From: Fidelibacterota bacterium UBA6630
Lineage (GTDB): Bacteria; Fidelibacterota; Marinisomatia; Marinisomatales; TCS55
Assembly (NCBI GenBank): GCA_002455835.1
Contig: DKLW01000032.1
Location: 1-56,292 of the forward strand
Reading direction: 5' to 3'
Length of the DNA stretch: 56,292 bases
In this document: positions 1 to 39,992 of the stretch, one piece after another
Numbering within the stretch: position 1 is the stretch's first letter
Layout: the number at the start of each line of letters is the position of its first letter
Program-made: the position numbers and the translations under genes
The notes under the pieces: model-generated
Database searches by the model: none
What the model saw: only the letters and a program-made list of their open reading frames with translations
Told to the model about the DNA's origin: nothing

Positions 1-320
1 CGATGAATCGTTGGCACTTCTTTGCTGGTGGACCAATTGGGAGGAACCGGAAGCCTGTCAGACCAAGTTTTTCCACCATCTTCACTCCGTTTATAAACAA
101 TCTCTTCTTTACCGTGGCCTTTGGGATAAACAGTCAAAATGGTTTGACCATCTTCCAATAATACTGTAGTGGGATGACCCAAGTAAACACCCTCTTTCTG
201 ATCTACGATAGTTTGAAGATCGGTGCGATTGTCTAAATCAATGGTTGGGATAGAAAAAGGAATTATCTCTGAACTGGATAAAATAGATATTTGAGTTAGT
301 ATTATAATAAATTTTCTCAT
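1..320 (-). CDS. BNR/Asp-box sialidase-like glycoside hydrolase, N-terminal part only (the gene continues past the window start)
   Basis: Partial, so absent from the ORF track. ATG at 320 on the minus strand. Translation MRKFIIILTQISILSSSEIIPF...YLGHPTTVLLEDGQTILTVYPKGHGKEEIVYKRSEDGGKTWSDRLP has a signal-like N-terminus and one Asp-box (SEDGGKTW). Its start overlaps the upstream stop as ATGA (317-320). Confidence 0.6.
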   Translation of the reverse strand, partial: MRKFIIILTQISILSSSEIIPFSIPTIDLDNRTDLQTIVDQKEGVYLGHPTTVLLEDGQTILTVYPKGHGKEEIVYKRSEDGGKTWSDRLPVPPNWSTSKEVPTIH

Positions 321-1360
321 CTTAAAATAAATCCGTCCTTTAAGGGGTCACTTGGATTGATCCAAAATGTATTTTTACTAGTTATAAATGCATCTCCTTT
401 TACTTCCGGTATAACTGCTTCGTATAATCCCATGGTGGTGGTTGCCATCACCTTCACAGAAAAGGTTGAACCAATTATACTTTCGATTGTAATGGATTCA
501 TTTATACCAATCTCACCACGGGCATGATGGATAGCCGCTCTAGCGCTCACACCAGTCCCTGTTGGACTTCGATCCATTTCCCCTTCTGCAAAAATGCAAA
601 CATTCCTACTGTGATGTTTAGGGCTTTGGGGCGGAGATATGAAAATAGTTCCATATAAAAAATTCATTTCCTGCTCAAATGGATGATTCATTTCAACTGA
701 ATCCATGATGGCTCGTTTAATTTTCATTCCTGTTTTAATGAGTTGATTTTGATCTTTTTCAGTGCAGCTCAATCCAACTTGATCCACATCCACAAACGCA
801 TAAAATGCACCGCCAAAAGCAAGGTCATATTGGATGGTTCCAAGCCCGGAAACATCCACGGTTGCATTTAATTGTTGAACAAAAGATTGCACGTTGGTAA
901 ATCCAACGCCAGTGATTTCACCATTTTCAACTTCCGCATAGGATTCAATATAGCCGGAAGGTACATCCATTCCTATTTTTGTGATGGGTTCTATTTTTGG
1001 AATGAGTCCTGTTTCCACGAACACTTTTGTTAAAGCGATCACCGCATGGCCGCAACCGGTGGAATAACCTTCATTGTGGATAAAAATGACTCCAAAATGG
1101 GCCTCGGGTGTATCCGGTTCAACAATGATGGCGCCATACATATCGGCGTGACCTCGCGGCTCCCACATAATTGCTTTTCGAATTTCGTCGTGGTTTACAT
1201 TTGCATCCGCACGCTTTTCTAAAAGTGTTTTCCCTTTGAGTTTGGGGTAACCACAAATCACAATCCGTAAGGGTTCACCACTGGCGTGGGCATCTATAGT
1301 TTGAATCTCCCGCCAATTTGCAGGTGGAGACCAATCGGATAATTTTGAGATGTCAATCAT
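317..1360 (-). CDS. Proline racemase-family enzyme, trans-3-hydroxy-L-proline dehydratase type (Cys/Thr catalytic pair)
   Basis: Family motifs are present: NEGYSTGCGHAVIAL (first catalytic Cys) and MDRSPTGTGVSARAA (Thr where racemases/epimerases have the second Cys). The track start at 1375 is TTG. I prefer ATG at 1360 (MIDISKL...), 4 nt after the upstream stop. Confidence 0.8.
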   Translation of the reverse strand: MIDISKLSDWSPPANWREIQTIDAHASGEPLRIVICGYPKLKGKTLLEKRADANVNHDEIRKAIMWEPRGHADMYGAIIVEPDTPEAHFGVIFIHNEGYSTGCGHAVIALTKVFVETGLIPKIEPITKIGMDVPSGYIESYAEVENGEITGVGFTNVQSFVQQLNATVDVSGLGTIQYDLAFGGAFYAFVDVDQVGLSCTEKDQNQLIKTGMKIKRAIMDSVEMNHPFEQEMNFLYGTIFISPPQSPKHHSRNVCIFAEGEMDRSPTGTGVSARAAIHHARGEIGINESITIESIIGSTFSVKVMATTTMGLYEAVIPEVKGDAFITSKNTFWINPSDPLKDGFILR

Positions 1361-1364
1361 ATCC

Positions 1365-2948
1365 CTATTTCGCAATTATTGATAATATGAAATATATCCC
1401 AAATGTCACTCCAATTATCGCCATGGATGCATTCTTGGCTGATCCCCAAGGAGTCATATCCACAGGTGCAGGATCCCGTTGATCGCTGATGGCAATTTCT
1501 TCAGCAGTTTTGGGCTTTAATTTTCCAATCAATAGCATAACTAGAATAGAAGCGACAAAACTAATAAAATAGCCATGCAGCCAGTGCAGGTCCCCATCCC
1601 CATTGGCAAAGAATTGGGGTACATCTTTAATATTAACGAATGTGAAAAATGCGTAAGCCACCATTCCCACAATCATACCCAATTTGGCTGCAATCGCCGG
1701 TACACGTTTGGTGGTAATCCCTAACAAAAATATTCCAATGATGGGCACACTGTAGAGTCCATTCACTTTTTGAAGGTATTCAAATATAGACTGCATTTGA
1801 TCCAAGAGCGGGGCAATAAAAATCGACGCAATGGCCAATGCGATACCAAACTTTTTACCTGTGTAAACGATTTGATCTCCGCTGGCTTCTTTATTGATAT
1901 ATCCCTTGTAAAACTGGAGTGAAAATAGTGTAGATGCACTATTTAGCGCTGAATTGAAAGAACTTAAAATGGAACCCATCAGTACCGCTGCGAATAACCC
2001 CAAAGACCAATCTGGGAGGACATGACGAACGATAGCGCCGTAAACCTGATCTTGTTTGTCAATGGTCAAATCCGTCATATGGAGGGCAATGATTCCCGGA
2101 AGGCAAAGCATTATAGGGCCGACCAGTTTCATGCCGGATGCAAAAAGAACCCCCTTTTGTCCTTCCGCTAAACTTTTAGCTGCTATTGCCCGCTGGACGA
2201 TCACTTGGTTTGTAGACCAGTAAAAAACCTGAATAAACATCATGCCTGTAAAAAGGGTCGGCCAAGGAACGGAGACCGCATTGCCATCAATATTCGTATT
2301 CGTTAATGGCGTGAGATATTGGGGATTGTTTTCTTTCAGGGCAGCCAACCCTGCAAAGAATGAACCATCACCTAATGCGATCAACGCTAAGAGTGGGATT
2401 GCTAAACCACCAACCAATAAACCAATTCCATTGATGGTATCACTAACAGCTACCGATTTTAATCCCCCAAAAATGGCGTATGAGCTGCCCAAAATGCCGA
2501 TGGTGGCCACCACAAGCCATAATGGTATATTCAAATCAAACATACCGATTAATGCTAAAGATCCAGTATAAAGGACCACAGGCAAAAGGACTGTAACATA
2601 TCCAAAAAGAAATAAACCCGAAACCATTGAACGCGTAGTTTTGTCAAATCTTTTCTCAAGAAATGCTGGTGTGGTTGTAAACCCACTGGCGAGATATCGT
2701 GGTAAAAACACTAATGCTGTTGCAATCATAGCAAATGCGGCTAAGGCTTCCCATGCAATTCCCACCAATGCTTTATCTCCAAATACAGCTCCATTTAATC
2801 CCACCAATTGTTCTGTGGATAGATTGGTGAGCAATAGTGATCCTGCCACTACGGGCCATGCCAATGCGCGGCCGCCGGTGAAATATTCTTCGGTAGCATT
2901 ATCGGACTTTTTCATTTTATGGACGATTTGATAGGTAAAAAATCCCAC
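1365..2948 (-). CDS. Sodium:solute symporter family (SGLT-like) permease
   Basis: Multi-TM protein with an SSS/SGLT signature EEYFTGGRALAWPVVAGSLLLTNLSTEQLVGLNG. The first canonical start is GTG at 2948, but a TM1-like segment is encoded in frame upstream (see findings). Confidence 0.85.
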   Translation of the reverse strand: MGFFTYQIVHKMKKSDNATEEYFTGGRALAWPVVAGSLLLTNLSTEQLVGLNGAVFGDKALVGIAWEALAAFAMIATALVFLPRYLASGFTTTPAFLEKRFDKTTRSMVSGLFLFGYVTVLLPVVLYTGSLALIGMFDLNIPLWLVVATIGILGSSYAIFGGLKSVAVSDTINGIGLLVGGLAIPLLALIALGDGSFFAGLAALKENNPQYLTPLTNTNIDGNAVSVPWPTLFTGMMFIQVFYWSTNQVIVQRAIAAKSLAEGQKGVLFASGMKLVGPIMLCLPGIIALHMTDLTIDKQDQVYGAIVRHVLPDWSLGLFAAVLMGSILSSFNSALNSASTLFSLQFYKGYINKEASGDQIVYTGKKFGIALAIASIFIAPLLDQMQSIFEYLQKVNGLYSVPIIGIFLLGITTKRVPAIAAKLGMIVGMVAYAFFTFVNIKDVPQFFANGDGDLHWLHGYFISFVASILVMLLIGKLKPKTAEEIAISDQRDPAPVDMTPWGSAKNASMAIIGVTFGIYFILSIIAK

Positions 2949-3043
2949 GGCACCTGTAGCTAGAATGAATGAAATGATTGAAATGGTATTTATTATTTTA
3001 TCCTTAAGAGTTAGACCAAGAATAAGATATTTTTGGACTAGGT

Positions 3044-7482
<4,439 letters not shown>

Positions 7483-7490
7483 TTCAAGAT

Positions 7491-8489
7491 TCAATTTATG
7501 GTCACCACAATTTTAGATGATAAATATTCTTGGTCTTCTTTTTCTAATTTTCGTAATAACGCCCATGCTGGTGATTGTGATATGGATAAATATTTATTTT
7601 CGGGATATAGTTTCATCCGCCATGCGGCCATGGTTACGGATATACACAGACGAATACTCATTAAGTATATTGCTGATCTTAATTCGAAATCATTTAAAGG
7701 AAAATTTTCATGATATCCTTTCAATACCTTTCCCATAGAGTGGATAGGGTCGGCTGACCCTAAACCAACATAGGCCATACAGATGGCCGGTTCTGCTACT
7801 TGATATGAATATACCATATCTCCAAAGTCGATTATCCCCGTTGTATTGCCATCAGCATTCACCAGTACGTTATGGTCATTCCCATCATTATGAATGACCA
7901 TTTTTCTAAGATGCATTTCAATAGGAATGACTTGAGATTCATAAATATCTAAAAAGTGAGAAACTGTTTCTTGATCTGATTGATTTTCCAAATATTGGAG
8001 TCTGGATCGAATCAATTCGACCGATTGTGCATCCCAGTGAAATTTACGATCTGCTGCCTGATGGGAGAATCCTCCCAATGCACGATCAAGTCTGGCTAAA
8101 AATCGTCCGAGCTTTTCGAATGTATCATCATCTAAATATTGATCTTTTAAAAACTGGCCTTCCAAATATTCGAGTAATCGGACAAAATATTTTTGACCAT
8201 CTTTTTTAATGGTTTGGATCTCCCCAACCTGCACAGGGACGCCTATATCCGGATCATTGGATTTAATGTGTAATGTCGCCTCATTTTGCATTTCAAGTAT
8301 TTGCCAATCTTCAGCTGGATTCGAAACTTTCAGCACATATTTTTGACTATTATTAGCGGAGATAAAAAAATTTTGATCCCGGTCGCTGACCAAAGATTTT
8401 GCATTCCCAACGATATTAAATTGGGATAAAAGAATTTTTTCAACTTCTACATTAGAAAATGATGGAGGCGGCGTTTGAAATACAGACAT
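7491..8489 (-). CDS. Aminoglycoside-phosphotransferase-fold kinase, hydroxylysine kinase (HYKK/AGPHD1)-like
   Basis: APH/ChoK catalytic loop [13 protein letters not shown] and GIIDFGDM. C-terminal LYPENKYL resembles human HYKK YPENKDYL. Sits directly upstream of the AGXT2L-type lyase. Confidence 0.7.
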
Positions 8490-8519
8490 GATGGTTTAAA
8501 ATTGGTTTAAGCACCGATA

Positions 8520-9347
8520 TTATGCTTTATAGATCAACAATTTGTACGATTTAAACTTAATAAAATTTTCACCCGTCAGTTTACCAGAGAACCAAACATG
8601 ATTAATACGGTTCAGTTTTTTTTGGAAATTCCATTTTATCAATTTTGTTAATTTTGGATATTTATAATTCAAATATCCCCCGGTCATTTCAGAAATGGGT
8701 TCGGCCACATCCGTTAACAGTTGATTAAGAAAGTCATATGTAGGTGCCGTTTGTTCGGTAATGTCCAATTCACAAGTCAGCTTTAAATTTGATTCTTCAA
8801 TGATTTTTTCAAAATAGTCCCAACGGTGTCCACCCCGCATTGGACTTTTCCCCGGGACATTTTTATGAAATACATCGCAGATTAACAGGTGTCCATTAGG
8901 GGATAATAACTTTTGAATCTTGGGAATAGATTTTTCCATGGGGATATATTGGAAACTTTCACTGAAAAGAATCAGGTCGTATGTTACGTTAGTTTCTACT
9001 GCTTCAAACTTGCAAATATGGATGGTTGAATTTTCATCCAATTTTTCCTTCACTCTTTCTGCCAAAAATTCACTGGGAATGACACAATCGACATGGTAAC
9101 CTAAACTGATCAATTTCTTCGCCAAGTTGCCCGAACCGCTTCCCACATCCAATATATTTTCAACACCTTCAGGAATGTGGTTAATAATGAGTTGAGAATG
9201 CCTTTGTTGTGCTTCAGCGAAATTTTGGGCGGTGGCGGTTTTTTCAAGAGGCCAATATCCATAGTGAAGATCTTCAGTTTTCATGAAGAACTTCCCGATT
9301 AGCAGGCCCACATCCAAACCGACTACTTTTGAATCATATTTACTCAT
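8520..9347 (-). CDS. Class I SAM-dependent methyltransferase
   Basis: Motif I ILDVGSGSGNLAKKL, an upstream DLHYGYW box, and post-I/II spacing typical of the Methyltransf_11/25 type. Confidence 0.75.
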   Translation of the reverse strand: MSKYDSKVVGLDVGLLIGKFFMKTEDLHYGYWPLEKTATAQNFAEAQQRHSQLIINHIPEGVENILDVGSGSGNLAKKLISLGYHVDCVIPSEFLAERVKEKLDENSTIHICKFEAVETNVTYDLILFSESFQYIPMEKSIPKIQKLLSPNGHLLICDVFHKNVPGKSPMRGGHRWDYFEKIIEESNLKLTCELDITEQTAPTYDFLNQLLTDVAEPISEMTGGYLNYKYPKLTKLIKWNFQKKLNRINHVWFSGKLTGENFIKFKSYKLLIYKA

Positions 9348-9528
9348 TTGATCTATACCGAATCTTCATTAAGAAAAATGAAGCGAGAAATTTCAAAATT
9401 GCAGTAATGGATTTTCCATCCCTGACAATTTATTGTATTTACTTTGAAAATTATTTGGTTGATGTCCCAATCTCTATTGATAATATCTTAATAAAATTAA
9501 TTCACCAAGGGGAAGGGACAAAAAAGAA

Positions 9529-9699
9529 TCAATCCAAAAATCGTGGTATAGTTAAATAAAGAACGGTGCCTGCAACCAGAGCAGTTACCCCTTTCAGTGC
9601 ACCAATATCTGTGGGAAATAAACCAGATTCCTGTAGCCATGAAATGATGGCAAACATAATCCCAAACGAGGAAAGGTAAAGCCAAATAATTTTACGCAT
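9529..9699 (-). CDS. Small (56 aa) predicted two-helix membrane protein, not in the ORF track
   Basis: Hand translation: MRKIIWLYLSSFGIMFAIISWLQESGLFPTDIGALKGVTALVAGTVLYLTIPRFLD, then TGA at 9529-9531. ATG at 9699 overlaps the pepP stop by 8 nt. Composition is far more protein-like than the listed 62-aa ORF 9497-9685 in another frame. Confidence 0.45.
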   Translation of the reverse strand: MRKIIWLYLSSFGIMFAIISWLQESGLFPTDIGALKGVTALVAGTVLYLTIPRFLD

Positions 9700-11068
9700 T
9701 ATTCCCTCCCATTACGGCTTCAATTTCTTCAATAGTTCGTGGTATATGAGGACCGAGAATACGATAGCCATCTTCAGTTATTAAAACATTATCCTCAATT
9801 CGGACGCCACCAAAATCGCGGTAAGAATCCAATGCATCATAATTGATAAATTCCATATGCTTTCCCTCATCTTTCCATTGGTCGATTAAATGAGGAATAA
9901 AATAAATGCCCGGTTCAACCGTGATTACAAAACCCGTTTTAAGATTTTTTGCCAGTCGTAAATAAGCCAAGCCAAATTGGTCGCTTCGATCATCCGCATC
10001 ATCATAACCAACCAAATCTTCCCCCAATCCTTCCATATCATGTACGTCTAGCCCTAGCATATGCCCTAATCCATGAGGGAAAAACAATGCATGAGCGCCT
10101 GCTTCTACTGCAGCCGAAGATTCACCCTTCATCAGTCCCAATCGCTTTAACCCCTTTACGGCGATGGTCGCTGCTTTTAAATGAGCGTTTTTATATGATT
10201 TTTCCGGAGCGCAAAAAGTAAATGCAGCCTCCTGCATATCATAAACGATATTGTAGATCTCTTTTTGTCTATCGGTGAATTGCCCTGATACTGGAAACGT
10301 CCGTGTGATATCACTGGCGTAGTGAAGTGGTGATTCAGCACCGGAATCATTTAATGCCAATTGGCCTTCAGCCATGATATTATTATATTCGTTCATATGA
10401 AGGATCTCTCCTCTTACTGAGAATATAACAGGATAAGCTAATCTTCTACCTTCAGTTAAGGCATGTCCTTCAATTTTGCCGACAATTGCTTGCTCGCTCA
10501 TGCCCGGATGTGTTGACTGCATGGCTATTTTATGACATTCAGCCGTGATTTGAAGAGCAGATTCAATTTCTGCAACTTCTTCTTCCGTTTTTATGGATCG
10601 CTGCTGAATAACCGATTGAATCAATGATTTTGAAGCACCATTTGATTGTCCATTTAATAATCGATCTACAAAAAGGTGTTGGTCACCTCGATAGCAAGGT
10701 AAATGATGAACTTGTTTTTTCTGAGTTTTTAAAAATGATTGGAGCTCCTCCAATGGCAAAAATTGATCGATACCTGCTGATTGCGCCATATCAGATATTT
10801 TGGTCCGTTCACCTTCCCAAACAATTTCATTCACTGTTAAATCATCACCAAACAAAATAGATTTTCCAGTTTTAACATCCATTACCAGATTCAAGTGAGG
10901 ATGATCCAATCCGCAGTAATATAAGAAATTGCTATCCTGGCGAAATCGAAGCCAGTTAGATGGATAATTCATGGGCACAGGATTATTCCCCGGTAATAAG
11001 ATTAATCCTTCATTGAGTTGTTCACAAAGGATTTTTCTTCGATTTTCATATGTATTTGCTGAAAACAT
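9692..11068 (-). CDS. pepP: Xaa-Pro aminopeptidase (M24B, aminopeptidase P family)
   Basis: AMP_N-type N-terminus (FRQDSNFLYYCGL) and M24B metal-ligand motifs HGLGHMLGLDVHD, VITVEPGIY, GGVRIEDNVLIT. Confidence 0.85.
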   Translation of the reverse strand: MFSANTYENRRKILCEQLNEGLILLPGNNPVPMNYPSNWLRFRQDSNFLYYCGLDHPHLNLVMDVKTGKSILFGDDLTVNEIVWEGERTKISDMAQSAGIDQFLPLEELQSFLKTQKKQVHHLPCYRGDQHLFVDRLLNGQSNGASKSLIQSVIQQRSIKTEEEVAEIESALQITAECHKIAMQSTHPGMSEQAIVGKIEGHALTEGRRLAYPVIFSVRGEILHMNEYNNIMAEGQLALNDSGAESPLHYASDITRTFPVSGQFTDRQKEIYNIVYDMQEAAFTFCAPEKSYKNAHLKAATIAVKGLKRLGLMKGESSAAVEAGAHALFFPHGLGHMLGLDVHDMEGLGEDLVGYDDADDRSDQFGLAYLRLAKNLKTGFVITVEPGIYFIPHLIDQWKDEGKHMEFINYDALDSYRDFGGVRIEDNVLITEDGYRILGPHIPRTIEEIEAVMGGNNA

Positions 11069-11150
11069 GTTTGCGAATTTAAAACGTCATTTTTCCTTAT
11101 TTGAATGATTTTTTACCCAGTTCAGTTTTTGTAGATATTTTGGTGACAAC

Positions 11151-11184
11151 TATATAAACATAATGTGTATATTATGTTTATATA
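11151..11184. promoter_or_regulatory. Perfect 14-bp inverted repeat with 6-nt spacer (candidate operator)
   Basis: TATATAAACATAAT-gtgtat-ATTATGTTTATATA. Lies 83-116 bp upstream of the pepP start, inside a roughly 430-bp AT-rich divergent intergenic region. Confidence 0.4.
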
Positions 11185-11440
11185 TTACATATTAATAAAT
11201 AATCAAGAGAGTATATTTATATGGAATTTATAATAAATATTGGTATAGAACTCTCTTTTTCTACTTGCTTTCACCATTATTATCACACATTGATAATAAT
11301 ACACATAATATGAATTGTTTTCAAAATGATATCCTGACAAACTTATGAATACGTTATTCGAAAGATAATGGTTACCGTAAGGCAATACCTGATATTTTGG
11401 AACTTTTATCTCATTCTCTATGTACAATCTACAAAACCAT

Positions 11441-11475
11441 GGAGGGAGTGCCAAAAGGCATTCCCTCTTTTTTTT
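11441..11475 (+). terminator. Strong intrinsic-terminator-like hairpin plus T8 inside the 5' leader of the 11500 gene
   Basis: GGAGGGAGTGCC-aaaa-GGCATTCCCTC (11 bp, one G-U) followed by TTTTTTTT. It ends 25 nt before the ATG at 11500. Nothing is coding on the plus strand upstream. Confidence 0.6.
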
Positions 11476-11499
11476 AACCCCAATACAAAGGAGCACGCC

Positions 11500-11904
11500 A
11501 TGCACCTAAATAAAACAGATGGATTAACTATTGGATTAATCACCATTGCCGGAATCGCAATTCTTGCGAATGGACTTCTTCGAAAGCCACCCGTAGAATT
11601 AACAGACCCATTTCAATATTCCGATGAGGTTGAATTAACTCTTGATATGCCGACAGATATAATGGCATTAGAAAAAGAAATTACATCTTCAGAAAAAACA
11701 GTAGAAATCAAAGTAAAATCACCTACGCTTCTCTCATTTTCAGAAGCATTCGCAGAAGCGCGACGTATGAGAGGTCCCGGTGCTATTTTTGAGTGGAATG
11801 GAAAATCCTACACTACCAGTTTAGCTGAAGAATTGGTAAATCCGAATGAGTCACTAGATTCAACACAAATATATCTTGTGATGAAACAAACACCCAATAA
11901 GTAA
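11500..11904 (+). CDS. Hypothetical N-terminally anchored protein (134 aa)
   Basis: ATG at 11500 is preceded by AAAGGAG (11487-11493) with a 6-nt spacer. One TM helix (GLTIGLITIAGIAILANGLL), then a soluble domain with the motif FSEAFAEARRMRGPGAIFEWNGKSYTT. The track's upstream extension (11368) runs through the terminator hairpin and is rejected. Confidence 0.6.
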   Translation: MHLNKTDGLTIGLITIAGIAILANGLLRKPPVELTDPFQYSDEVELTLDMPTDIMALEKEITSSEKTVEIKVKSPTLLSFSEAFAEARRMRGPGAIFEWNGKSYTTSLAEELVNPNESLDSTQIYLVMKQTPNK

Positions 11905-11915
11905 TCGGGAGCCAT

Positions 11916-11941
11916 GTAGAGGGGCAGTAATGTCCCTCTAC
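11916..11941. terminator. Hairpin between convergent genes, with no U-tract
   Basis: GTAGAGGG-gcagtaatgt-CCCTCTAC, 12 nt after the stop of the 11500-11904 gene. Confidence 0.3.
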
Positions 11942-12042
11942 AACCAACCTCCCTGAATCATATGATAAAACACATATATTACCACCATTCCAAAAATCAC
12001 AAATATAATCATCACAATTGTTTTGCCTGATATTTTCCTCAT
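11938..12042 (-). CDS. Possible 34-aa single-TM micro-protein
   Basis: ATG at 12042, 2 nt after the PAP2 stop. Hand translation: MRKISGKTIVMIIFVIFGMVVIYVFYHMIQGGWL. The stop lies in the hairpin stem. Could be spurious. Confidence 0.25.
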   Translation of the reverse strand: MRKISGKTIVMIIFVIFGMVVIYVFYHMIQGGWL

Positions 12043-12044
12043 AA

Positions 12045-12773
12045 TTAAAAATGCCAGACCAATTGAATCCGCGATTGATTGGCTAAGTGGTGTATGCTAA
12101 TTTTTCCACTCACATTATTTTGGTAGACTTGGGCAAACCCTTTTCCGATGGCCATACCCAAAGCTGCGCCAAATATGACATCGCTCACATAATGCTTATT
12201 ATCATGGATTCGACTTAATCCTGTAATGCACGCCAACGCATAAGCCGGCACACCCTTATTACTTCCATATATTTCCTGGGCGATAGTGGCAGTTAAAAAA
12301 CTATTTGATGTATGTCCGGATGGGAATGATCGTGTATTGGATTGGTCAGGCCGTTCCCTTCTCACTGCAAATTTCAATCCATACGTAATGATACCATTGG
12401 CAATAAAAGCATTCATTGCATATTCCAATTGGTTACTTTTCTCATCATTATTTAGAAAGGATCCCCACAATAGCAACTGACCTGTAATTCCCCAATAATC
12501 ACCAACCTTTGCCAATCCATTGGGCATCAGCCCATTGGATTGAACATTCGATTGGAAAGTTTGATCATATTGTGACGCAAGTCCACTACCAATTAATCCG
12601 CCGAGCAAAATCATCTGTAAATTAGGATTAGAAATCGTTTGAGACCATCCATCTGTAACAGAAGAAAATGAAATGGGCTGTCCATTAATTGACCCAATGA
12701 ATAAAAAATAGATCAATAGATGACTTCGGAATTTTAACCAATTATTCATAAAAGAAATTAAACGATCCAACAT
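12045..12773 (-). CDS. PAP2-family phosphatase (acid phosphatase / lipid or undecaprenyl-diphosphate phosphatase type)
   Basis: All three PAP2 motifs are present: KFAVRRERP, PSGHTS, SRIHDNKHYVSDV. Signal/anchor at the N-terminus. Confidence 0.85.
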   Translation of the reverse strand: MLDRLISFMNNWLKFRSHLLIYFLFIGSINGQPISFSSVTDGWSQTISNPNLQMILLGGLIGSGLASQYDQTFQSNVQSNGLMPNGLAKVGDYWGITGQLLLWGSFLNNDEKSNQLEYAMNAFIANGIITYGLKFAVRRERPDQSNTRSFPSGHTSNSFLTATIAQEIYGSNKGVPAYALACITGLSRIHDNKHYVSDVIFGAALGMAIGKGFAQVYQNNVSGKISIHHLANQSRIQLVWHF

Positions 12774-12792
12774 CTACTTTCACTTATGACTT

Positions 12793-12826
12793 ATATCGAA
12801 TTTTGAATAAGTTATTGATTCGATAT
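12793..12826. promoter_or_regulatory. 9-bp inverted repeat with 16-nt spacer in a divergent promoter region
   Basis: ATATCGAAT-n16-ATTCGATAT, between the PAP2 start (12773) and the lysA-like start (12841). Confidence 0.3.
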
Positions 12827-12840
12827 TTAAGGAAATTACT

Positions 12841-14091
12841 GTGAACATCCATCCCTTGCGAGAATTATTAAATGATGAACCGCTGATGGCCGAATTATCT
12901 GCCACCTATGGTACGCCATTATATATCTATGTGAAGGATCAAATTGGCCAAAATGTTAATCGTCTGAAGCATGCGCTAAAACCCAATTTTAACCAATCCC
13001 ATATTTGCTATGCGGTAAAAGCAAATAGCAATCCCCATCTTTTAAAATTAATGAAATCCTATCATCCCGAAATTGGAGGGGACTGCTCAAGCCCGGGCGA
13101 AATCTATGCGGCCGAATTGGCAGGGATTGATCCAAAGAAATGTTTATACACAGGAAATTATGAATCGGAGCCCGATTTAAGACTGGCTCTTAAAAAAGGA
13201 TGTTATATCAATCTTGATGATGCATCATCCTTGGATAGGTTGTTATCAATTGGCACACCGGAACGCATTTCGTTTCGACTCAATCCCGGATTTGGGAAAG
13301 GTACTTTTTCACAAATTACCACTGCAGGCGAAAATGCAAAGTTTGGTATCCCAGCAGAGAAAATTGTAAATGCTTATATAAATGCACAAAAAGCAGGTAT
13401 TCATAATTTTGGGTTACAATGTATGGCCGGCTCTGGAAATTTAGACGGGGACTATTTTATTGAATTGCTCACGGCCATCATTCATAATACCAAAAAGATT
13501 GAATCAAAATTGGGAATCCATTTTGAATTTGTCAGCATGGGTGGCGGTTGGGGCATTCCATACAAAGATGAAGAAACACCCCTTGATTTTGACTCCCTTT
13601 TCAAAAATTTGTCTGATGTTTTATATAGTCATTATGAGAATAAAGATGAAGCCCCTGCACTCTGGATTGAACCGGGCAAAAGCATCATTGGCAATACAGG
13701 CTTTATATTGACCACAGTTACGGGTTTGAAAAATAGTTATAAAAATTATGTGGGTCTTGATGCTGGCATGGAGACCCTCATGCGTCCTGCATTATATGGG
13801 GCATACCACCGCATGTATAAAATTGGAGAATCGGGTAAAAGCAATGGTGCGTATGATTTTACCGGGCCGATTTGCGAAAACACGGATAGAATCGCATTTG
13901 ACCGAGCTTTCCCAACCTTAGAAGAAGGTGATCTAATTGCCATTATGGATGCAGGCGCCTATGGATATGCTATGTCGCATAATTTCAATACCAGGCCACG
14001 GGCTGCCGAAGTACTGCTAGATGGACGAAACCATCAACTCATCCGACGGCGAGAAACCATAGAGGAAATCTTTACGGGATGTGATGTTTAG
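12841..14091 (+). CDS. lysA: Diaminopimelate decarboxylase-like, PLP fold-III decarboxylase
   Basis: YAVKANSNP (PLP Lys), GGGWGIPY, EPGKSIIGNTG, GPICENTD, DAGAYGYAMSHNFNTRPRAAEVLL. GTG start preceded by AAGGAA. Substrate inferred from motif pattern only. Confidence 0.7.
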   Translation: MNIHPLRELLNDEPLMAELSATYGTPLYIYVKDQIGQNVNRLKHALKPNFNQSHICYAVKANSNPHLLKLMKSYHPEIGGDCSSPGEIYAAELAGIDPKKCLYTGNYESEPDLRLALKKGCYINLDDASSLDRLLSIGTPERISFRLNPGFGKGTFSQITTAGENAKFGIPAEKIVNAYINAQKAGIHNFGLQCMAGSGNLDGDYFIELLTAIIHNTKKIESKLGIHFEFVSMGGGWGIPYKDEETPLDFDSLFKNLSDVLYSHYENKDEAPALWIEPGKSIIGNTGFILTTVTGLKNSYKNYVGLDAGMETLMRPALYGAYHRMYKIGESGKSNGAYDFTGPICENTDRIAFDRAFPTLEEGDLIAIMDAGAYGYAMSHNFNTRPRAAEVLLDGRNHQLIRRRETIEEIFTGCDV

Positions 14092-16525
14092 GCGGATTTT
14101 CATCTTAATCATTTTGGTTTCAATGATGTTTGGACAAGATGCTCAAAGGAAAGGCATTCATCAAATTGAGTTAGAACACCATAAAATCTATTATTTAGAG
14201 TCGACCCACAAACCGGGTTCCACCCCTCCTATCCCTCTGAAAAAACGAGTCGATGGACCATCAAAAATTGTATTTGGCTACCACCCTTATTGGTCCGGAT
14301 CAAAATGGCAAAACTATAATTATGACTTATTGACAACTATTGCATACTTCTCAGCAGAAGCCAATGCAAATGGTGACCTCACTGACCTCCATGGATGGCC
14401 TAAAACAGATCTCATAAATAAAGCACATGAGAATGGTGTGGAAGTTGTATTGGTTGTGACACTTTTCAACAAATCTGATTTAGAAACGCTTTTGAGCAAC
14501 AGCGATAATCGAAATCGGCTCATTAATAATTTGGTAACCCAAGTTGAGAATGGAAATGCAGATGGTGTAAACATTGATTTTGAAGCATTCCCCCCTTCAC
14601 AAAAATCCAATCTGGTCACTTTTGTTAAAGATTTGCGGAAAGCACTGCGGGACAAGATATCTCATGCAAAAGTTACCTTGGCTACACCGGCTGTGGATTG
14701 GAACAGCGCATGGGATTTTAATGCATTGGCCAAAGAAAGTGACGGCCTTTTCATCATGGGTTACGATTATCATTGGAAAGGCAGTTCAACCACTGGCCCT
14801 GTTTCTCCCCTTAAAGATGGATCTTACAATATCACCAAGACAGTGAACACGTATCTATCAGCAACAGGAAATAATGCAGAAAAAATCATCCTTGGCCTTC
14901 CTTATTATGGATATGAATGGACGGCTAATTCCGGTAATAAGGGCGCAAATACTACAGCTTCAGGAATAGCAGTTATATATGCCAATGCAGAAAATAATGC
15001 GAAATCTTATGGTAGAATATGGGATGATGCATCTGAAACGCCATGGTATAAATACGAAAATAATGGATGGTATCAAACTTGGTATGATGATAGTTTATCG
15101 TTGGCAAAAAAATATGACTTAGCTCTATCCAAAGATTTGGGTGGCGTGGGTATGTGGGCATTGGGATATGATGAAGGATCTCAAAAATTGTGGCAATCAT
15201 TAAAGGATAAGATGTCCGCGAAAACCGCACCTTCGACTCCTGTCAATCTCAATATCACTAATTTAGGGAATGGTGTGGTTACGATTGATTTTACTGGTTC
15301 ACCCGTCGCTACCGGTTATTCAGTCATCCGAGTTTATCCTCTTTCATCTAAAGAAGATGATTTAGGCTCTTTCACCAGCACCCCGATTCTGCTTTCAGGC
15401 CTTACTTTAGATTCAACATATTATTTTACAATCAAAGCATCAAATGATATTGGATCAAGTGGTGCAACTGAAGTATTGGGCGTAACGCCCTCATCCAACA
15501 TGCCGAAGATATTAATCATAAATGGATTTGACCGAGTCAGTGGTACAACAAATACCTATGATTTCATAAAGCAACATGGTGATGCCATTCACAAAAATGG
15601 ATATACATTTGATTCAGCGTCTAATGAAGCCATCATAAATGGGAGAGTAAAATTAACCGACTATGCAATCATAGATTGGATTTTAGGTGAAGAGGGGTCA
15701 TCAACTTCATCCTTCGATGAAACAGAACAATCCTTGTTAAAAGAATTTATGAAAAAAGGTGGCCGATTGTTTGTCTCCGGTTCTGAAATTGGATATGATC
15801 TTGTTGAACAAGGCAGTGTGAGCGATAACCTATTTTTTGAAAAATTCCTTAAAGCAGAGTATATATCAGATGCAGCAGCCGGAAAACAGGGCACCTATTC
15901 TGTGACTGGCGTATCCGGATCTATTTTCGAAAATATGACCATTACATTCGATGATGGAACACATGGAACCTACGATGTTGATTGGCCGGATGGCATTAAA
16001 CCGACAAGTGATGCTTCGATCCTTTTGCATTATGAAAACGCAGAATACGATCAAAAAGGTGGTGCGGGGATTGCCTATACCGGTGGGTTGGATGGCAGTC
16101 TTTTTACCGGTGGGTTGGTGTATTTATCCATTGGATTTGAAACAATCTATCCTGATAATAGTCGAAAAACCATCATGGGTAATATACTGAGTTATCTCGA
16201 TGGCACTACTGCTTCTGTAAGAGATGAAGAGAATATTATACCCAAAAGCCTAAATATCATCTCCCTTTACCCCAACCCTTCGAACCAATCTATTACCATT
16301 GAATTTCGGGTAGAACAATTTTCACCCATAGCATACCTTTCCATCACTGACCTTATGGGAAGAGAAGTATATAAAATGTCTGTTCAGCCCCTTGCGGCCA
16401 AGACACAAAAATTTTCGTGGCATGGTCGGTTGTATAATGGGCAGGATGCACCAACAGGTATTTATCTCGCCAAATTATCACAAGGAAGCCAACTCATCAC
16501 CAAAAAATTTACATTACTCAAATAA
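14084..16525 (+). CDS. Secreted GH18 glycoside hydrolase with FN3, a domain of unknown function and a T9SS C-terminal sorting domain
   Basis: Signal peptide. GH18 catalytic box ADGVNIDFE. FN3-like segment (PSTPVNLNITNLGNGVVTIDF...YYFTIKASN). About 230 aa unassigned (ILIINGFDRVSG...). Por/T9SS tail (LYPNPSNQSITIEF...GIYLAKL...KKFTLLK). ATG at 14084 (14081 is GTG) overlaps the lysA end. Confidence 0.8.
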   Translation: MFRRIFILIILVSMMFGQDAQRKGIHQIELEHHKIYYLESTHKPGSTPPIPLKKRVDGPSKIVFGYHPYWSGSKWQNYNYDLLTTIAYFSAEANANGDLTDLHGWPKTDLINKAHENGVEVVLVVTLFNKSDLETLLSNSDNRNRLINNLVTQVENGNADGVNIDFEAFPPSQKSNLVTFVKDLRKALRDKISHAKVTLATPAVDWNSAWDFNALAKESDGLFIMGYDYHWKGSSTTGPVSPLKDGSYNITKTVNTYLSATGNNAEKIILGLPYYGYEWTANSGNKGANTTASGIAVIYANAENNAKSYGRIWDDASETPWYKYENNGWYQTWYDDSLSLAKKYDLALSKDLGGVGMWALGYDEGSQKLWQSLKDKMSAKTAPSTPVNLNITNLGNGVVTIDFTGSPVATGYSVIRVYPLSSKEDDLGSFTSTPILLSGLTLDSTYYFTIKASNDIGSSGATEVLGVTPSSNMPKILIINGFDRVSGTTNTYDFIKQHGDAIHKNGYTFDSASNEAIINGRVKLTDYAIIDWILGEEGSSTSSFDETEQSLLKEFMKKGGRLFVSGSEIGYDLVEQGSVSDNLFFEKFLKAEYISDAAAGKQGTYSVTGVSGSIFENMTITFDDGTHGTYDVDWPDGIKPTSDASILLHYENAEYDQKGGAGIAYTGGLDGSLFTGGLVYLSIGFETIYPDNSRKTIMGNILSYLDGTTASVRDEENIIPKSLNIISLYPNPSNQSITIEFRVEQFSPIAYLSITDLMGREVYKMSVQPLAAKTQKFSWHGRLYNGQDAPTGIYLAKLSQGSQLITKKFTLLK

Positions 16526-17763
16526 TGAATCGATATTTCTTCTCCTTTATCATCCTCATAGCAGGATGTACAACTCCACCCCCTTCTATTTCTCCTTCTG
16601 AATTGAATACGATTCCATCTCCACCAAAAGGGAAAGTGGGCTTGGATGTTTTATTGGAAGAGCGTCAAGATTTAATCATCGGGAAAACTATCGGATTGGT
16701 TACCAATCATACGGGAGTAGATCAAAATGGGACGCCCAATTATGAAAGGATTCTTGAAATGAACGATGTGGATCTCAAAATTATATTTTCCCCGGAACAT
16801 GGGTTGTTTGGAGAATCAGCAGCGGGAGAAAAAGTATATTATAATGGCCAAATAAAGACCCTGCCAACCGTGGTAAGCCTGTATGGAAAAAATCGGAAGC
16901 CAACGCCAGAACAAATGAGGGGACTGGATGTGATTTTGTATGACATCCAAGATGTGGGTGCCCGATTTTATACATACATATCAACCATGGGTTTGGTGAT
17001 GGAGGCCGCAGCCGAATCGGGTGTGGAAGTTATTATTCTTGACCGTCCCAATCCGATCACAGGGACAAAAGTTGAAGGACCAATTTTGAATTTAACACAT
17101 CAATCTTTTGTGGGGAAATATCCCATCCCAATTCGTTATGGATTGACGGCAGGTGAATTGGCTCAAATGATAATTGGAGAAAAATGGATTAACAATATCC
17201 CGAGAATTGATGTTGTCCTTGTAGATGGTTGGAACAGAACACAATGGCAGGACGAAACCCATCTCCCATGGGTGAAACCCTCTCCCAACATTCCCGATAT
17301 TGAGACAGCCATCATTTATCCCGGCATGTGTTTATTAGAAGCTACAAATGTGAATGAAGGACGGGGAACCCAAAAACCATTCAAACGATTCGGTGCACCT
17401 TGGATTCTCAAAGAAATTTTGGCTGAAAGTCTAAACAATAATCATTTGCCCGGTGTTAGCTTTACGGCCGTTTCATTTATCCCTACAGATTTGGAGGGAA
17501 TGGCCAATAATCCAAAATATGAAAATCAAGTTTGCCATGGCATTGAGATTCAAATCACAGATCGGAATACTTATAATAGTGTCGCCACGGGGATTACTGT
17601 TATTGAGACTTTACAAAAATTATATCCAAATAAATTTGAGATTAAGACATCAGGAATGAATCGATTGTGGGGAATAAATGATCATGATTTTTCGAATTAC
17701 AATGAGGGTAAAGAATCACAATATTTCAAAAATAAGGCAGAAGGATATTATCTATATGAATAA
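16525..17763 (+). CDS. namZ: DUF1343 / NamZ-type exo-beta-N-acetylmuramidase (GH171), lipoprotein
   Basis: DUF1343 hallmarks GLVTNHTGVD, IFSPEHGLFGE, LYDIQDVGARFYTYISTM, ILDRPNP. Lipobox LIAGC. Start overlaps the GH18 stop (TAATG). Confidence 0.75.
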   Translation: MNRYFFSFIILIAGCTTPPPSISPSELNTIPSPPKGKVGLDVLLEERQDLIIGKTIGLVTNHTGVDQNGTPNYERILEMNDVDLKIIFSPEHGLFGESAAGEKVYYNGQIKTLPTVVSLYGKNRKPTPEQMRGLDVILYDIQDVGARFYTYISTMGLVMEAAAESGVEVIILDRPNPITGTKVEGPILNLTHQSFVGKYPIPIRYGLTAGELAQMIIGEKWINNIPRIDVVLVDGWNRTQWQDETHLPWVKPSPNIPDIETAIIYPGMCLLEATNVNEGRGTQKPFKRFGAPWILKEILAESLNNNHLPGVSFTAVSFIPTDLEGMANNPKYENQVCHGIEIQITDRNTYNSVATGITVIETLQKLYPNKFEIKTSGMNRLWGINDHDFSNYNEGKESQYFKNKAEGYYLYE

Positions 17764-19165
17764 TCTAAAGATTTTGATTTCAAAATTGGGATGCATATTT
17801 ATTCTATCCATTCATAGTTGTACACAATCTCCAATTATTTTTCATGGTAAAGGTGATAGAACCACAGAAAAACAAATCTATAATATTATTAATAAATCTG
17901 GCCTCTCGACCAATATAGGCGTTAAAGCTGTATCACTAAAATCTGGAAAGGTATTGGTGGACTTAAACAGCCATTCCCTTTTCAATCCTGCCAGCAATAA
18001 TAAAATATTTACAGCCATTGCTTCTCTTGCCCTTTTGGACTCGGGATATACATTTCATACAGAAGTTCGTCATGAGAATAATATACTATATTTGATCGGT
18101 GGTGGCGACCCGGATCTAACTTTATCATCATTGGATTCATTAGCAACAATCGTTGCAAAAGCAAATCTAACAGTGGATCAATTAATATTGGATGATACGC
18201 GTCATGATTCATTGACCTATGGTGAAGGATGGATGTGGGATGAAGGCGCCTGGTGGTATTCAGCTCCAATCAGTGCTTTATCTGTCAATGATAATTGTGT
18301 GAACTTTGTAATTCATCCCGGAATCGTAGGTGAACCGGCACGGGTTTACACCCATCCCCAATCTTCATATTATTCTATTCAAAACAAATCGATTACAGTA
18401 ACTGATTCCACAGGTTTTGAAAAATTAAAAATCGATCGAGATTGGCAAAACCGTACAAATCAATTCACCATTACTGGGAATATAATGGATACAACCTCAA
18501 CCGATACTATATTTAGAAATATAGAAGAACCAACACAATTTGTAGGCCATTTATTTAGAGAAATGATTTCAAAAAAGGGGATAGAAATTCAAACAATGCA
18601 TAAAAATAAAACGCCTGAATCAGCACAGCTTATCGCTACCCATACATCACGAACTCTACCAAATACAGTTAAGAATTTAATGGTTGAGAGCGATAATCTA
18701 ACCGCGGAATTATTAACCAAAACAATCGGTTTTGAATTCGAAGGTCTGCAAGGCACCTGGACAAATGGGCTACTACACATACGCGACTTTTTATATGACA
18801 GTGTTGGAATGGATACCGCCGAATTTTCAATAAGAGATGGGTCTGGTGTTTCACGATATAATTATTCTAGTCCAAATCATTTCATCCAACTATTGACCTG
18901 GGCATATAATCATCCTGAAATAAGGGATCAATTTTTGTTTACCCTTCCTCAGGGTGGTCTAAATGGGACACTTAAAGATCGAAATTTTCCAGATACTGTA
19001 CTTGCGAAAACGGGATCATTATCAGGGGCTTCCAATATATCCGGTTATATAATTAATAAAAATGATGTAATCGTATTCTCAATTTTAATGAATGGTTTTA
19101 AAGGATCTGCAAGTCCATATCGTTCTCTACAGGATAAGATTATCATTCAACTGAGTGATACATGA
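17756..19165 (+). CDS. dacB: D-alanyl-D-alanine carboxypeptidase/endopeptidase, PBP4 (S13) family, lipoprotein
   Basis: SxxK (ASNNKIFTA), DGSGVSRYN, KTG (AKTGSL). Lipobox SIHSC. ATG at 17756 gives an 8-nt overlap with namZ; the track's 17678 start would overlap by 86 nt. Confidence 0.8.
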   Translation: MNNLKILISKLGCIFILSIHSCTQSPIIFHGKGDRTTEKQIYNIINKSGLSTNIGVKAVSLKSGKVLVDLNSHSLFNPASNNKIFTAIASLALLDSGYTFHTEVRHENNILYLIGGGDPDLTLSSLDSLATIVAKANLTVDQLILDDTRHDSLTYGEGWMWDEGAWWYSAPISALSVNDNCVNFVIHPGIVGEPARVYTHPQSSYYSIQNKSITVTDSTGFEKLKIDRDWQNRTNQFTITGNIMDTTSTDTIFRNIEEPTQFVGHLFREMISKKGIEIQTMHKNKTPESAQLIATHTSRTLPNTVKNLMVESDNLTAELLTKTIGFEFEGLQGTWTNGLLHIRDFLYDSVGMDTAEFSIRDGSGVSRYNYSSPNHFIQLLTWAYNHPEIRDQFLFTLPQGGLNGTLKDRNFPDTVLAKTGSLSGASNISGYIINKNDVIVFSILMNGFKGSASPYRSLQDKIIIQLSDT

Positions 19166-20079: not shown

Positions 20080-20118
20080 AATAGTCTAAAATATTTAATC
20101 TGGCCTTCCATGGATTTT

Positions 20119-21519: not shown

Positions 21520-21523
21520 GGGG

Positions 21524-22381: not shown

Positions 22382-22391
22382 TCTTCCTTAA

Positions 22392-25304: not shown

Positions 25305-25361
25305 AACATAAAAATTAACTGAACTTCCCCCATAAATCTTTAACTTTTCTTTCTCAAAATC

Positions 25362-39961: not shown

Positions 39962-39992
39962 AGGTTTTCGAAGGTTTAAAGTTTTTTACTTT

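Follow-up and report, generated by a model that had tools for sequence, protein, structure and literature searches.

A Marinimicrobia gene string that may salvage building blocks from glycosylated, hydroxylated peptides

Gene content and extent of the string

We analysed positions 1-56292 of contig DKLW01000032.1 of Fidelibacterota bacterium UBA6630 (hereafter the window), focusing on a string of genes at positions 1-11068 that combines a small-molecule kinase and a phospho-lyase with an exported beta-galactosidase, a trans-3-hydroxyproline (3-Hyp) dehydratase and an Xaa-Pro peptidase. The listing and translation of open reading frames (ORFs) gave nine ORFs here, all co-directional on the minus strand (Table 1), and the position-1 edge of the window cuts the locus. 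An earlier note on this DNA had described the same nine genes at these coordinates. Its gene and domain identities, including that of a Cys/Thr-type 3-Hyp dehydratase, were borne out by profile searches against Pfam and NCBIfam and by alignment with 6R76, 7QPO and 7PB3, and every junction that it quoted is exact. The reading frames of the BNR protein and the 3-Hyp dehydratase (T3HypD) overlap by ATGA at 317-320, T3HypD and the symporter SSF1 are 4 nt apart (1361-1364), and the GH2 galactosidase and the lyase are 2 nt apart (6197-6198). With a lyase start at the TTG at 7494 the kinase and lyase frames overlap by TTGA, with a start at the ATG at 7482 they are 8 nt apart, and the 56-aa ORF overlaps the peptidase (PepP) by 8 nt (9692-9699). 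Larger gaps, on which the note was silent, separate SSF1 from GH2 (95 nt, 2949-3043), the kinase from the methyltransferase (30 nt), and the methyltransferase from the 56-aa ORF (181 nt).

Table 1. Features of the gene string and its upstream region, in window coordinates
Feature	Coordinates	Strand	Remarks
BNR_2 (sialidase-like) gene, 5' part, 106 codons of 308 aa	1-320	-	signal-like N-terminus, one Asp-box
Cys/Thr-type trans-3-hydroxyproline dehydratase (T3HypD), ProR family	317-1360	-	PF05544
SGLT-type Na+/solute symporter (SSF1)	1365-2948	-	PF00474
LacZ-type GH2 beta-galactosidase, lipoprotein signal	3044-6196	-	five LacZ domains
AGXT2L-type pyridoxal phosphate (PLP) phospho-lyase, class-III aminotransferase-like (predicted)	6199-7494 (or 7482)	-	PF00202
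APH-fold small-molecule kinase	7491-8489	-	PF01636
Class-I S-adenosylmethionine methyltransferase	8520-9347	-	generic Methyltransf_11/12/23/25 matches
56-aa hydrophobic ORF, doubtful gene	9529-9699	-	without family match
M24B Xaa-Pro peptidase (PepP), first gene of the string, cytoplasmic	9692-11068	-	PF05195 + PF00557
Upstream intergenic region, likely promoter of the string	11069-11367	-	sigma-70-like site

An identical T3HypD protein occurs on 100-143-kb contigs from a public metagenome-assembled genome (MAG; GCA_002448755.1), from Tara Oceans and from other marine metagenomes. These contigs are referred to as L001-L006, with L001 being DKAC01000018.1 of the public MAG, and on them the locus runs on for ~10 kb beyond the window edge, on the same strand. 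The complete BNR_2 gene (308 aa) is followed by a 451-aa protein with Gfo/Idh/MocA and GH109_C domains and by a second SSF symporter (SSF2); the end of SSF2 shares 10 nt with a 349-aa GHMP kinase. Next come a nucleotidyl-transferase and a GT2 protein, and the far end of the string holds a signal-peptide-bearing amidohydrolase, weakly like amidohydrolase-type Xaa-Pro dipeptidases, and then an M20 peptidase. The window carries the promoter-proximal 11 kb of a ~21-kb catabolic string that is conserved in Marinimicrobia and apparently polycistronic; kinase and GH2 homologues with a source name came from Candidatus Marinimicrobia or Neomarinimicrobiota. On L001 the lyase is called as a 132-aa Aminotran_3 fragment and SSF2 as a 309-aa fragment. 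Both are intact in four metagenome contigs (L002-L005), and the lyase is intact in the window too, unlike in L001, pointing to gaps or mistakes in the L001 assembly and not to pseudogenes.

The lyase matched the human ethanolamine-phosphate phospho-lyase (6TOR) at 507 bits and the bacterial phospholyase 5G4I at 328 bits, compared with at most 191 bits for the best true class-III transaminase, racemase or decarboxylase. We assign it, on sequence similarity, as a phospho-lyase of the AGXT2L (ETNPPL/PHYKPL) type and not a transaminase. It corresponds to the C-terminal domain (644 bits) and the kinase to the N-terminal domain (269 bits) of NCBIfam PRK06148, a 1015-aa model of a natural kinase-lyase fusion. 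The kinase motifs H200-N201-D202...N207 and D221-F-G-D224 are invariant in 15 aligned homologues. PDB searches with the single sequence and with a profile found no close solved structure for the kinase, only APH(2'') and homoserine kinase at E values of ~1e-4 to 1e-5; the profile search retrieved no aminopropanol kinase structure, and no HYKK model was found in Pfam or NCBIfam. From its context, we infer that the kinase is the partner of the lyase and is hydroxylysine-kinase-like.

GH2 contains all five domains of LacZ (Glyco_hydro_2_N, Glyco_hydro_2, Glyco_hydro_2_C, LacZ_4 and Bgal_small_N in Pfam) and scored 1073 bits, with a cutoff of 999, against NCBIfam beta_gal_Bga2A (NF052611, "beta-galactosidase, LacZ type"). 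Its identity to E. coli LacZ is 38%, and it keeps E461, E537, E416, H418, Y503, H540, W568, F601, N604 and W999, with N102 changed to D and S796 to G. Its N-terminus is a lipoprotein signal, and the enzyme is therefore predicted to act outside the cytoplasm; every orthologue has a lipobox or signal anchor. An Asp at the LacZ aglycone position N102 was found in 12 of 12 GH2s linked to a kinase/lyase (eleven from Marinimicrobia and one from Acidobacteriota), a comparison made among kinase/lyase-linked GH2s only. In Marinimicrobia this Asp is part of a YLDEE motif and is accompanied by a shorter 794-804 loop. The positive charge of the aglycone in galactosyl-hydroxylysine (Gal-Hyl) would be matched by an acidic +1 subsite, a possible adaptation that we regard as a weak lead.

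T3HypD aligned to PF05544 over residues 27-349 (profile 2-324 of 325, E=1e-107), a full-length proline-racemase fold. It matched the trans-3-hydroxy-L-proline (T3LHyp) dehydratase of Thermococcus litoralis, 6R76, at 462 bits and the human enzyme 7QPO at 273 bits. Its GCGH and DRSPTGTG motifs align with MCGH and SPTG of these two proteins, where the racemase 7PB3 has SPCGTG. In this family a Cys-Cys pair marks a racemase or epimerase and a Cys-Thr pair a T3LHyp dehydratase; the kinetics of the T. litoralis enzyme have been reported (PMC4141209). The top NCBIfam match of six was TransHydProDhtase NF045511, at 382 bits. Because this falls under the equivalog cutoff of 540, we call the window protein a very likely, not curated-grade, 3-Hyp dehydratase; the missed cutoff is offset by the 462-bit match to the characterised T. 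litoralis LhpH (TlLhpH). A 352-aa T3HypD product with a TTG start was also considered, and its exact-protein look-up was empty; the recorded product is the 347-aa form with an ATG start.

The remaining conserved genes of the string concern sugars and peptides. SSF1 scored 595 bits against NCBIfam PRK10484 (cutoff 401), its nearest solved structure is the Vibrio Na+/galactose transporter vSGLT (199 bits), and it is 79-88% identical between Marinimicrobia species; SSF2 is also nearest to the Vibrio transporter. The GFO_IDH_MocA and Glyco_hydro_109_C protein past the window edge matched Elizabethkingia alpha-N-acetylgalactosaminidase 2IXA at 517 bits over residues 31-451 and an Akkermansia GH109 at 253 bits, carries the twin-arginine translocation (TAT) motif RRKFIK in all orthologues, and is predicted to be a true alpha-N-acetylgalactosaminidase. 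The GHMP kinase bears the galactokinase-type signature GEHxDY; a canonical GalK was not supported, as all equivalogs scored under cutoff and the best PDB matches were mevalonate kinases. The M24B peptidase, with AMP_N (PF05195) and Peptidase_M24 (PF00557) domains, scored 200 bits to PepP and 182 bits to PepQ models, both under their cutoffs, and is probably of the aminopeptidase P or prolidase type. Export signals were found on GH2, GH109 and a flavin amine oxidase of some relatives (below), and not on the kinase, lyase, T3HypD or PepP.

The BNR protein has a single Asp-box, SEDGGKTW, and no RIP motif in its first 106 residues. The full 308-aa protein gave only weak or faint BNR_2/BNR matches and none in NCBIfam, and the fragment in the window matched neither Pfam nor NCBIfam. 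The 56-aa ORF, which is covered by RNA contigs, matched no family in either database, and the related loci contained no homologue of it. In three relatives (L010, at 7544-9106, L011 and L014) a flavin amine oxidase with a TAT export signal (PF01593, ~520 aa) lies between PepP and the kinase, and L020, which has no PepP, has an oxidase of the same family three genes upstream of the kinase; the window species has none. The idea that the 56-aa ORF is a relic of this oxidase was dropped, as tblastn showed no similarity. A possible periplasmic target of the oxidase is the amine group of a compound that derives from lysine or resembles a polyamine.

Conservation, recurrence and transcription

A kinase profile built from the 15 aligned homologues was searched against one genome per GTDB species, giving 560 confirmed hits. 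The best 80 were fetched with 10-kb flanks, and synteny was read from BLASTP comparisons in which the locus proteins were the queries and the six-frame ORFs of the fetched loci the targets. Kinase and lyase are adjacent, separate genes in 29 of these 80 loci and fused in 46, with 5 lacking a lyase. In the loci called Marinimicrobia-type here, kinase and lyase are separate genes, and in 18 of them the available sequence extended 0.8 kb or more past the lyase.

GH2 directly follows the lyase in 13 of these 18 loci (L007, L008, L009, L010, L011, L014, L020, L021, L022, L023, L024, L026 and L046). In most of the complete ones it is followed by SSF1, T3HypD, GH109 and SSF2, and by the GHMP kinase, NTP-transferase and GT2 genes where the flank suffices. 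Eight species-level relatives (L007, L008, L010, L011, L014, L018, L023 and L046) have PepP upstream of the kinase. The PepP-kinase-lyase-GH2-SSF1-T3HypD order is thus found in about a dozen species-level Marinimicrobia genomes. Since their kinases share only 39-55% identity with that of the window, the arrangement is deeply conserved and more than chance. One locus (L018) lacks GH2 and SSF1 and instead has an OCD/mu-crystallin gene and T3HypD, in that order, directly after the lyase. The OCD protein scored 249 bits against the Pyr2C/Pip2C reductase model, under the cutoff of 322, and together with T3HypD it may form the known two-enzyme LhpI/LhpH pair for 3-Hyp (PMC3958920, PMC4141209). A reductase for pyrroline-2-carboxylate (Pyr2C) is absent from the window and from contigs L001-L006. 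SSF1 is missing from L010, where GH2 is kept, and PepP from L020, L021 and L026. In two Marinimicrobia-type genomes, L016 and L036, a kinase homologue (46% and 66% identical, respectively) has no adjoining lyase gene, so the pairing is not absolute.

These neighbourhoods bear on two claims of the earlier note. The link that it drew between the kinase/lyase pair, GH2 and T3HypD is conserved, with GH2 after the lyase in 13 loci and the OCD-type gene plus T3HypD in that place in L018. Its nine-gene unit held only in part: a conserved core stands, whereas the methyltransferase, the 56-aa ORF and the BNR gene fall outside it and are shared with the closest relatives at most. Outside the window species the methyltransferase was seen only in L010 and L020, and the BNR gene only in L010.

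Among the genome loci from other phyla, including Pseudomonas, Desulfobacterota, Chloroflexota and Asgard archaea, the kinase and lyase are fused in 46 and adjacent in 9, with no conserved neighbours. The fused forms showed no informative recurrent neighbour; the sole family shared by 15 of the loci examined was a ~260-aa protein at varying position. The fused proteins (L032:11529-13097 and others in L028-L086) carry a linker of ~250 residues with an M23/LytM-like motif, GGWPPHLHFQI, and the split Marinimicrobia genes have no such middle domain.

The exception among other phyla is L079, from a soil-type Acidobacteriota MAG. At 1292-14996 it encodes a TonB-dependent receptor, a divergent SSF symporter, a LacZ-type GH2 that is 52% identical to the window GH2, a canonical galactokinase (416 bits, cutoff 385), the kinase-lyase fusion and a GH63-like (MGH1-like) hydrolase. 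When the L079 fusion protein was used as query in a scan of metagenomes, 80 loci were obtained, in all of which kinase and lyase are fused. L087 (fusion 81% identical) has the order GH2-GalK-fusion-GH63, and L088 (70% identical) has SSF and GalK-fusion-GH63 with no GH2; the other 78 loci, at 59% identity or less, have none of the L079 context. The L079 and L087 sets are co-directional and tightly packed. Since the gene order and the fusion state in Acidobacteriota differ from those in Marinimicrobia, the link between this kinase-lyase and galactose metabolism must have arisen two or more times. The L079 GH63-like protein matched the Thermus mannosylglycerate/glucosylglycerate hydrolase type at 63 bits and the alpha-glucosidase YgjK at 32 bits, and is equally distant from both; removal of the alpha-1,2-glucose from glucosyl-galactosyl-hydroxylysine (Glc-Gal-Hyl) would be an attractive possible role for it. 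The GH2, receptor and fusion genes of L079 are each split into several ORFs, probably by long-read frameshift errors. The best 120 homologues of the window GH2 were all from Marinimicrobia, at 57% identity or more, and revealed no further contexts in other phyla; the locus GH2 by itself falls in clusters of hundreds of metagenomic sequences.

The string is transcribed in the sea. In marine metatranscriptomes, up to 25% of the words sampled from window positions 3000-9500 were found, and assembled contigs were 95-99% identical to the window, which indicates a sister strain. These RNA contigs cover every gene at a word depth of ~2-9 and cross six junctions: BNR/T3HypD, T3HypD/SSF1, SSF1/GH2 (over the 95-nt gap), GH2/lyase, lyase/kinase and 56-aa ORF/PepP. 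The co-transcription that the earlier note had supposed is thereby supported. Coverage stops at ~11059 beside the PepP start, with none over 11077-11378, and no RNA contig was found over 9265-9415; this fits one or two polycistronic transcripts that start upstream of PepP. The contigs are unstranded and DNA carry-over is possible; an RNA rather than DNA origin is argued by a neighbouring gene that is 3-5 times deeper. A sigma-70-like site (TTGAAA-17-TATTAT) lies at 11324-11296. Promoter-like and terminator-like sites across the scan were not above shuffled expectation, and an Rfam scan of the whole window returned no family.

Beside the string, the plus-strand stretch 11441-11904 holds a strong hairpin with a 12-bp stem followed by TTTTTTT at 11441-11478. 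Right after it comes the deepest metatranscriptome stretch (11473-11843, depth 14-24), within a 178-aa ORF that has no Pfam or Rfam match. A candidate for the true start of the protein is the ATG near 11497 (MHLNKTDG...), which a leader or attenuator may precede.

Candidate substrates and competing explanations

The reading that we rank first, tentatively and with somewhat less than even confidence, is that the string salvages building blocks from glycosylated, proline-rich, hydroxylated peptides, for which glycopeptides of the collagen or extracellular-matrix type are the best fit. Outside the cytoplasm, the lipoprotein GH2 would strip beta-galactose and the TAT-exported GH109 alpha-GalNAc; the two SGLT-like Na+ symporters would take in the sugars, and the GHMP sugar-1-kinase would phosphorylate them. 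In the cytoplasm, the M24B peptidase would cleave Xaa-Pro bonds, with a prolidase-like amidohydrolase and an M20 peptidase encoded further downstream. The Cys/Thr dehydratase would convert trans-3-hydroxyproline to pyrroline-2-carboxylate, which an OCD-type reductase would turn into proline. The kinase would phosphorylate the hydroxyl group of 5-hydroxylysine (Hyl) that the galactosidase has unmasked, and the PLP phospho-lyase would then eliminate phosphate and ammonia to give 2-aminoadipate semialdehyde. All of these substrates, chiefly 5-hydroxylysine for the kinase and lyase and Gal-Hyl for GH2, are proposed from sequence and context, as is the route by which the amino acids would enter the cell.

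Several pieces of chemistry suit this proposal. In Gal-Hyl the galactose sits on the same 5-OH that hydroxylysine kinase phosphorylates, and among natural beta-galactosides Hyl-O-Gal is, to our knowledge, the sole well-known one with a vicinal terminal amino alcohol as its aglycone. 3-Hyp and Hyl are hallmark residues of collagen, and collagen peptides require Xaa-Pro peptidases. 3-Hyp is a residue found chiefly in collagen (PMC4141209, PMC9309405). The Gal-Hyl idea is backed by the conserved synteny, the reductase-type gene of L018, the recurrence in Acidobacteriota with a galactokinase, and the in-situ transcription. In the literature searched we found no bacterial route for Gal-Hyl or Glc-Gal-Hyl and no bacterial enzyme for it, nor any description of such a combined bacterial locus, in agreement with the earlier note. 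Every enzyme family here is known, and the combination is a candidate new pathway from known parts.

A number of observations weigh against a pathway of this kind. Both symporters look like sugar carriers, and GH2 is, by its profile match, a generic exported LacZ-type enzyme. GH109, SSF2 and the sugar kinase are conserved like the rest, and collagen glycans offer no explanation for them. The nearest characterised lyase acts on phosphoethanolamine and not on phospho-hydroxylysine, and ethanolamine-type substrates are possible for the kinase/lyase pair. In other phyla, more than 120 kinase-lyase loci stand without any neighbouring glycosidase, Hyp or peptidase gene. Within the Marinimicrobia-type set, 4 of 18 loci (L012, L017, L019 and L037) have unrelated neighbours such as pilus and secretion genes and no glycosidase, Hyp or peptidase gene, and T3HypD is missing in L014, L020 and L046. 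The locus in the window genome lacks a 4-Hyp pathway, an aminoadipate-semialdehyde dehydrogenase, an evident amino-acid transporter and a Pyr2C reductase. Because GH109, SSF2, the GHMP sugar kinase and further peptidases are also encoded, the locus reads as a broader salvage unit for glycoconjugates and peptides and not as a dedicated Gal-Hyl route. The dedicated Gal-Hyl/Hyp salvage that the earlier note had proposed is weakened accordingly, by these three genes and by the generic nature of GH2.

The strongest rival, which we consider somewhat less likely, holds that the string is a general scavenging locus for O-glycans and glycoconjugates (GH2, GH109, BNR, two SGLTs and a sugar-1-kinase) in which Gal-Hyl plays no role. 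Its targets would be Gal-beta/GalNAc-alpha glycans (for example the mucin-type core 1 carried by Pro/Ser/Thr-rich peptides) or the glycans of bacterial surfaces, with the peptidases trimming the peptide, and the kinase and lyase would form a B12-independent route for ethanolamine or aminopropanol from lipid head groups that shares only regulation with the rest. The close match of GH109 to the Elizabethkingia and Akkermansia enzymes, the generic GH2, the galactose-type symporters and the phosphoethanolamine phospho-lyases among the nearest solved lyases all suit it. So does the peptidoglycan-scavenging island next door, which points to an organism that harvests mixed detrital glycoconjugates, and so do the kinase-lyase genes of other lineages, most of which stand alone. 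It leaves unexplained, however, why the kinase-lyase precedes GH2 in 13 divergent species (with PepP upstream in eight relatives), why it stands directly beside OCD and T3HypD in L018, and why a GH2/GalK/kinase-lyase cluster was rebuilt in an unrelated phylum; mucins, moreover, contain no 3-Hyp.

A different source for the same enzymology, namely algal or diatom wall glycoproteins (hydroxyproline-rich, or silaffin-type with hydroxylysine derivatives and dihydroxyproline) in place of animal collagen, appears improbable. Diatom walls do contain delta-hydroxylysine derivatives and 3,4-dihydroxyproline. The marine pelagic setting, with Tara Oceans metagenomes and metatranscriptomes, agrees with such a source, and the TAT-exported flavin amine oxidase and methyltransferase near the kinase in some relatives could handle N-modified lysine derivatives. 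Against this, the hydroxyproline-rich glycoproteins (HRGPs) of algae have 4-Hyp and not 3-Hyp, and the dehydratase is close to enzymes specific for trans-3-Hyp (PMC4141209). The locus also encodes no arabinofuranosidase or other HRGP-typical glycosidase, and trimethylated hydroxylysine has no free amine of the kind that the PLP lyase needs.

Equally improbable is the absence of any functional coupling, that is, inherited synteny of small independent modules in streamlined genomes with the Acidobacteriota set a coincidence: the modules do vary independently (GH2-SSF1 in L018, SSF1 in L010, T3HypD in L014, L020 and L046, PepP in L020, L021 and L026), promoter- and terminator-like sites are uninformative and RNA coverage is uneven, with none over 9265-9415, but the reading frames overlap or nearly abut, the order is kept at 39-55% kinase identity, six junctions are crossed by RNA contigs, and the same functions recur in a different gene order in another phylum.

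Salvage of glycosylated, hydroxylated peptides thus keeps its first rank. A stronger form of it, that Marinimicrobia encode the first bacterial pathway for glycosylated hydroxylysine, with an exported galactosidase, a Hyl kinase/phospho-lyase and co-expressed 3-Hyp and Xaa-Pro catabolism, seems to us possible but more doubtful. No animal protein is more abundant than collagen, whose glycosylated hydroxylysine and 3-hydroxyproline residues withstand the usual proteolysis and catabolism, and Marinimicrobia (SAR406) are an abundant, uncultured phylum of the deep ocean. If the proposal is true, a physiological substrate could be assigned to the widespread bacterial HYKK/PHYKPL homologues (the 560 confirmed hits in species-level genomes), collagen-type matter from gelatinous zooplankton, carcasses and faecal pellets would be a defining food and give the phylum an ecological role, and in soil Acidobacteriota a comparable route for Glc-Gal-Hyl, using a GH63-like alpha-glucosidase, would have been assembled. 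If the kinase/lyase pair prefers ethanolamine, the locus would still be a useful example of an Na+-symporter-based glycoconjugate salvage operon without Sus-type uptake.

Elsewhere in the window, a peptidoglycan/muropeptide scavenging island (12841-31084) adjoins the string. It encodes a GH18 protein with a type IX secretion system sorting tail, a NamZ exo-beta-N-acetylmuramidase, an S13 D-Ala-D-Ala carboxypeptidase, a third SSF symporter and an AmiA-like MurNAc-L-Ala amidase, together with a 970-aa GH3 (NagZ-like)/beta-lactamase-fold fusion, a second GH3, SpoIID, an MFS transporter and an ornithine/diaminopimelate (Orn/DAP) decarboxylase. Island and string together make up ~40 kb for harvesting detrital glycoconjugates. 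Two further stretches, 37763-42179 and 48165-52655, hold two tandem paralogous DUF5916 proteins of ~730 aa and a 1496-aa protein in which only an N-terminal AMP-binding (acyl-CoA-synthetase-like) module was recognised.

Relation to known systems

One close parallel is vertebrate hydroxylysine degradation by HYKK/AGPHD1 and PHYKPL/AGXT2L2 (paralogue ETNPPL/AGXT2L1), in which an APH-fold kinase is likewise paired with a PLP phospho-lyase of the class-III aminotransferase fold. The identification of HYKK is said to have relied on bacterial kinase-lyase associations. The vertebrate pair has been cited as an example of comparative-genomics-assisted identification (PMC5714238). In the window, the pair consists of two genes among glycosidases, symporters and a 3-Hyp dehydratase, the last of which has no counterpart in the vertebrate hydroxylysine degradation set.

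For the sugar part, animal Glc-Gal-Hyl is deglycosylated by the GH65 protein-glucosylgalactosylhydroxylysine glucosidase PGGHG (PMC8537180). The stepwise removal of sugars from hydroxylysine that we propose resembles the action of PGGHG and the kidney/lysosomal beta-galactosidase, and the clan GH-G (GH63-like) enzyme of the Acidobacteriota variant could play the alpha-glucosidase role; the bacterial enzymes belong to GH2 and the GH63-like group, whereas the animal ones belong to GH65 and GH35. The mucin O-glycan sets of the gut and skin bacteria Akkermansia, Elizabethkingia and Bacteroides (GH109/GH2/GH33) share with the locus a GH109, an exported GH2, a BNR protein, and sugar uptake with anomeric phosphorylation. 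Unlike these sets, the locus has Na+ symporters instead of a SusC/SusD pair, its sugar genes are coupled to enzymes for hydroxy-amino acids, and the window BNR protein has no recognisable sialidase signature beyond its one Asp-box.

For 3-Hyp, the bacterial and archaeal pathway of Azospirillum brasilense and T. litoralis consists of the LhpH dehydratase and the LhpI Pyr2C reductase (PMC3958920, PMC4141209). The window Cys/Thr dehydratase is close to TlLhpH, and its counterpart in L018 has an OCD/mu-crystallin gene directly upstream; unlike in that pathway, no reductase is encoded in the locus of the window genome. Known LhpH/LhpI clusters hold proline dehydrogenase and racemase genes, and not glycosidases or a kinase/lyase pair as found here.

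Finally, the actinobacterial amino-alcohol pairs (the aminopropanol kinase of the Mycobacterium microcompartment and Arthrobacter 5G4I) resemble the proposed route in that a hydroxyl group beside a terminal amine is phosphorylated and a PLP-dependent elimination follows. The animal enzymes are much nearer to the window lyase (507 bits) than 5G4I is (328 bits).

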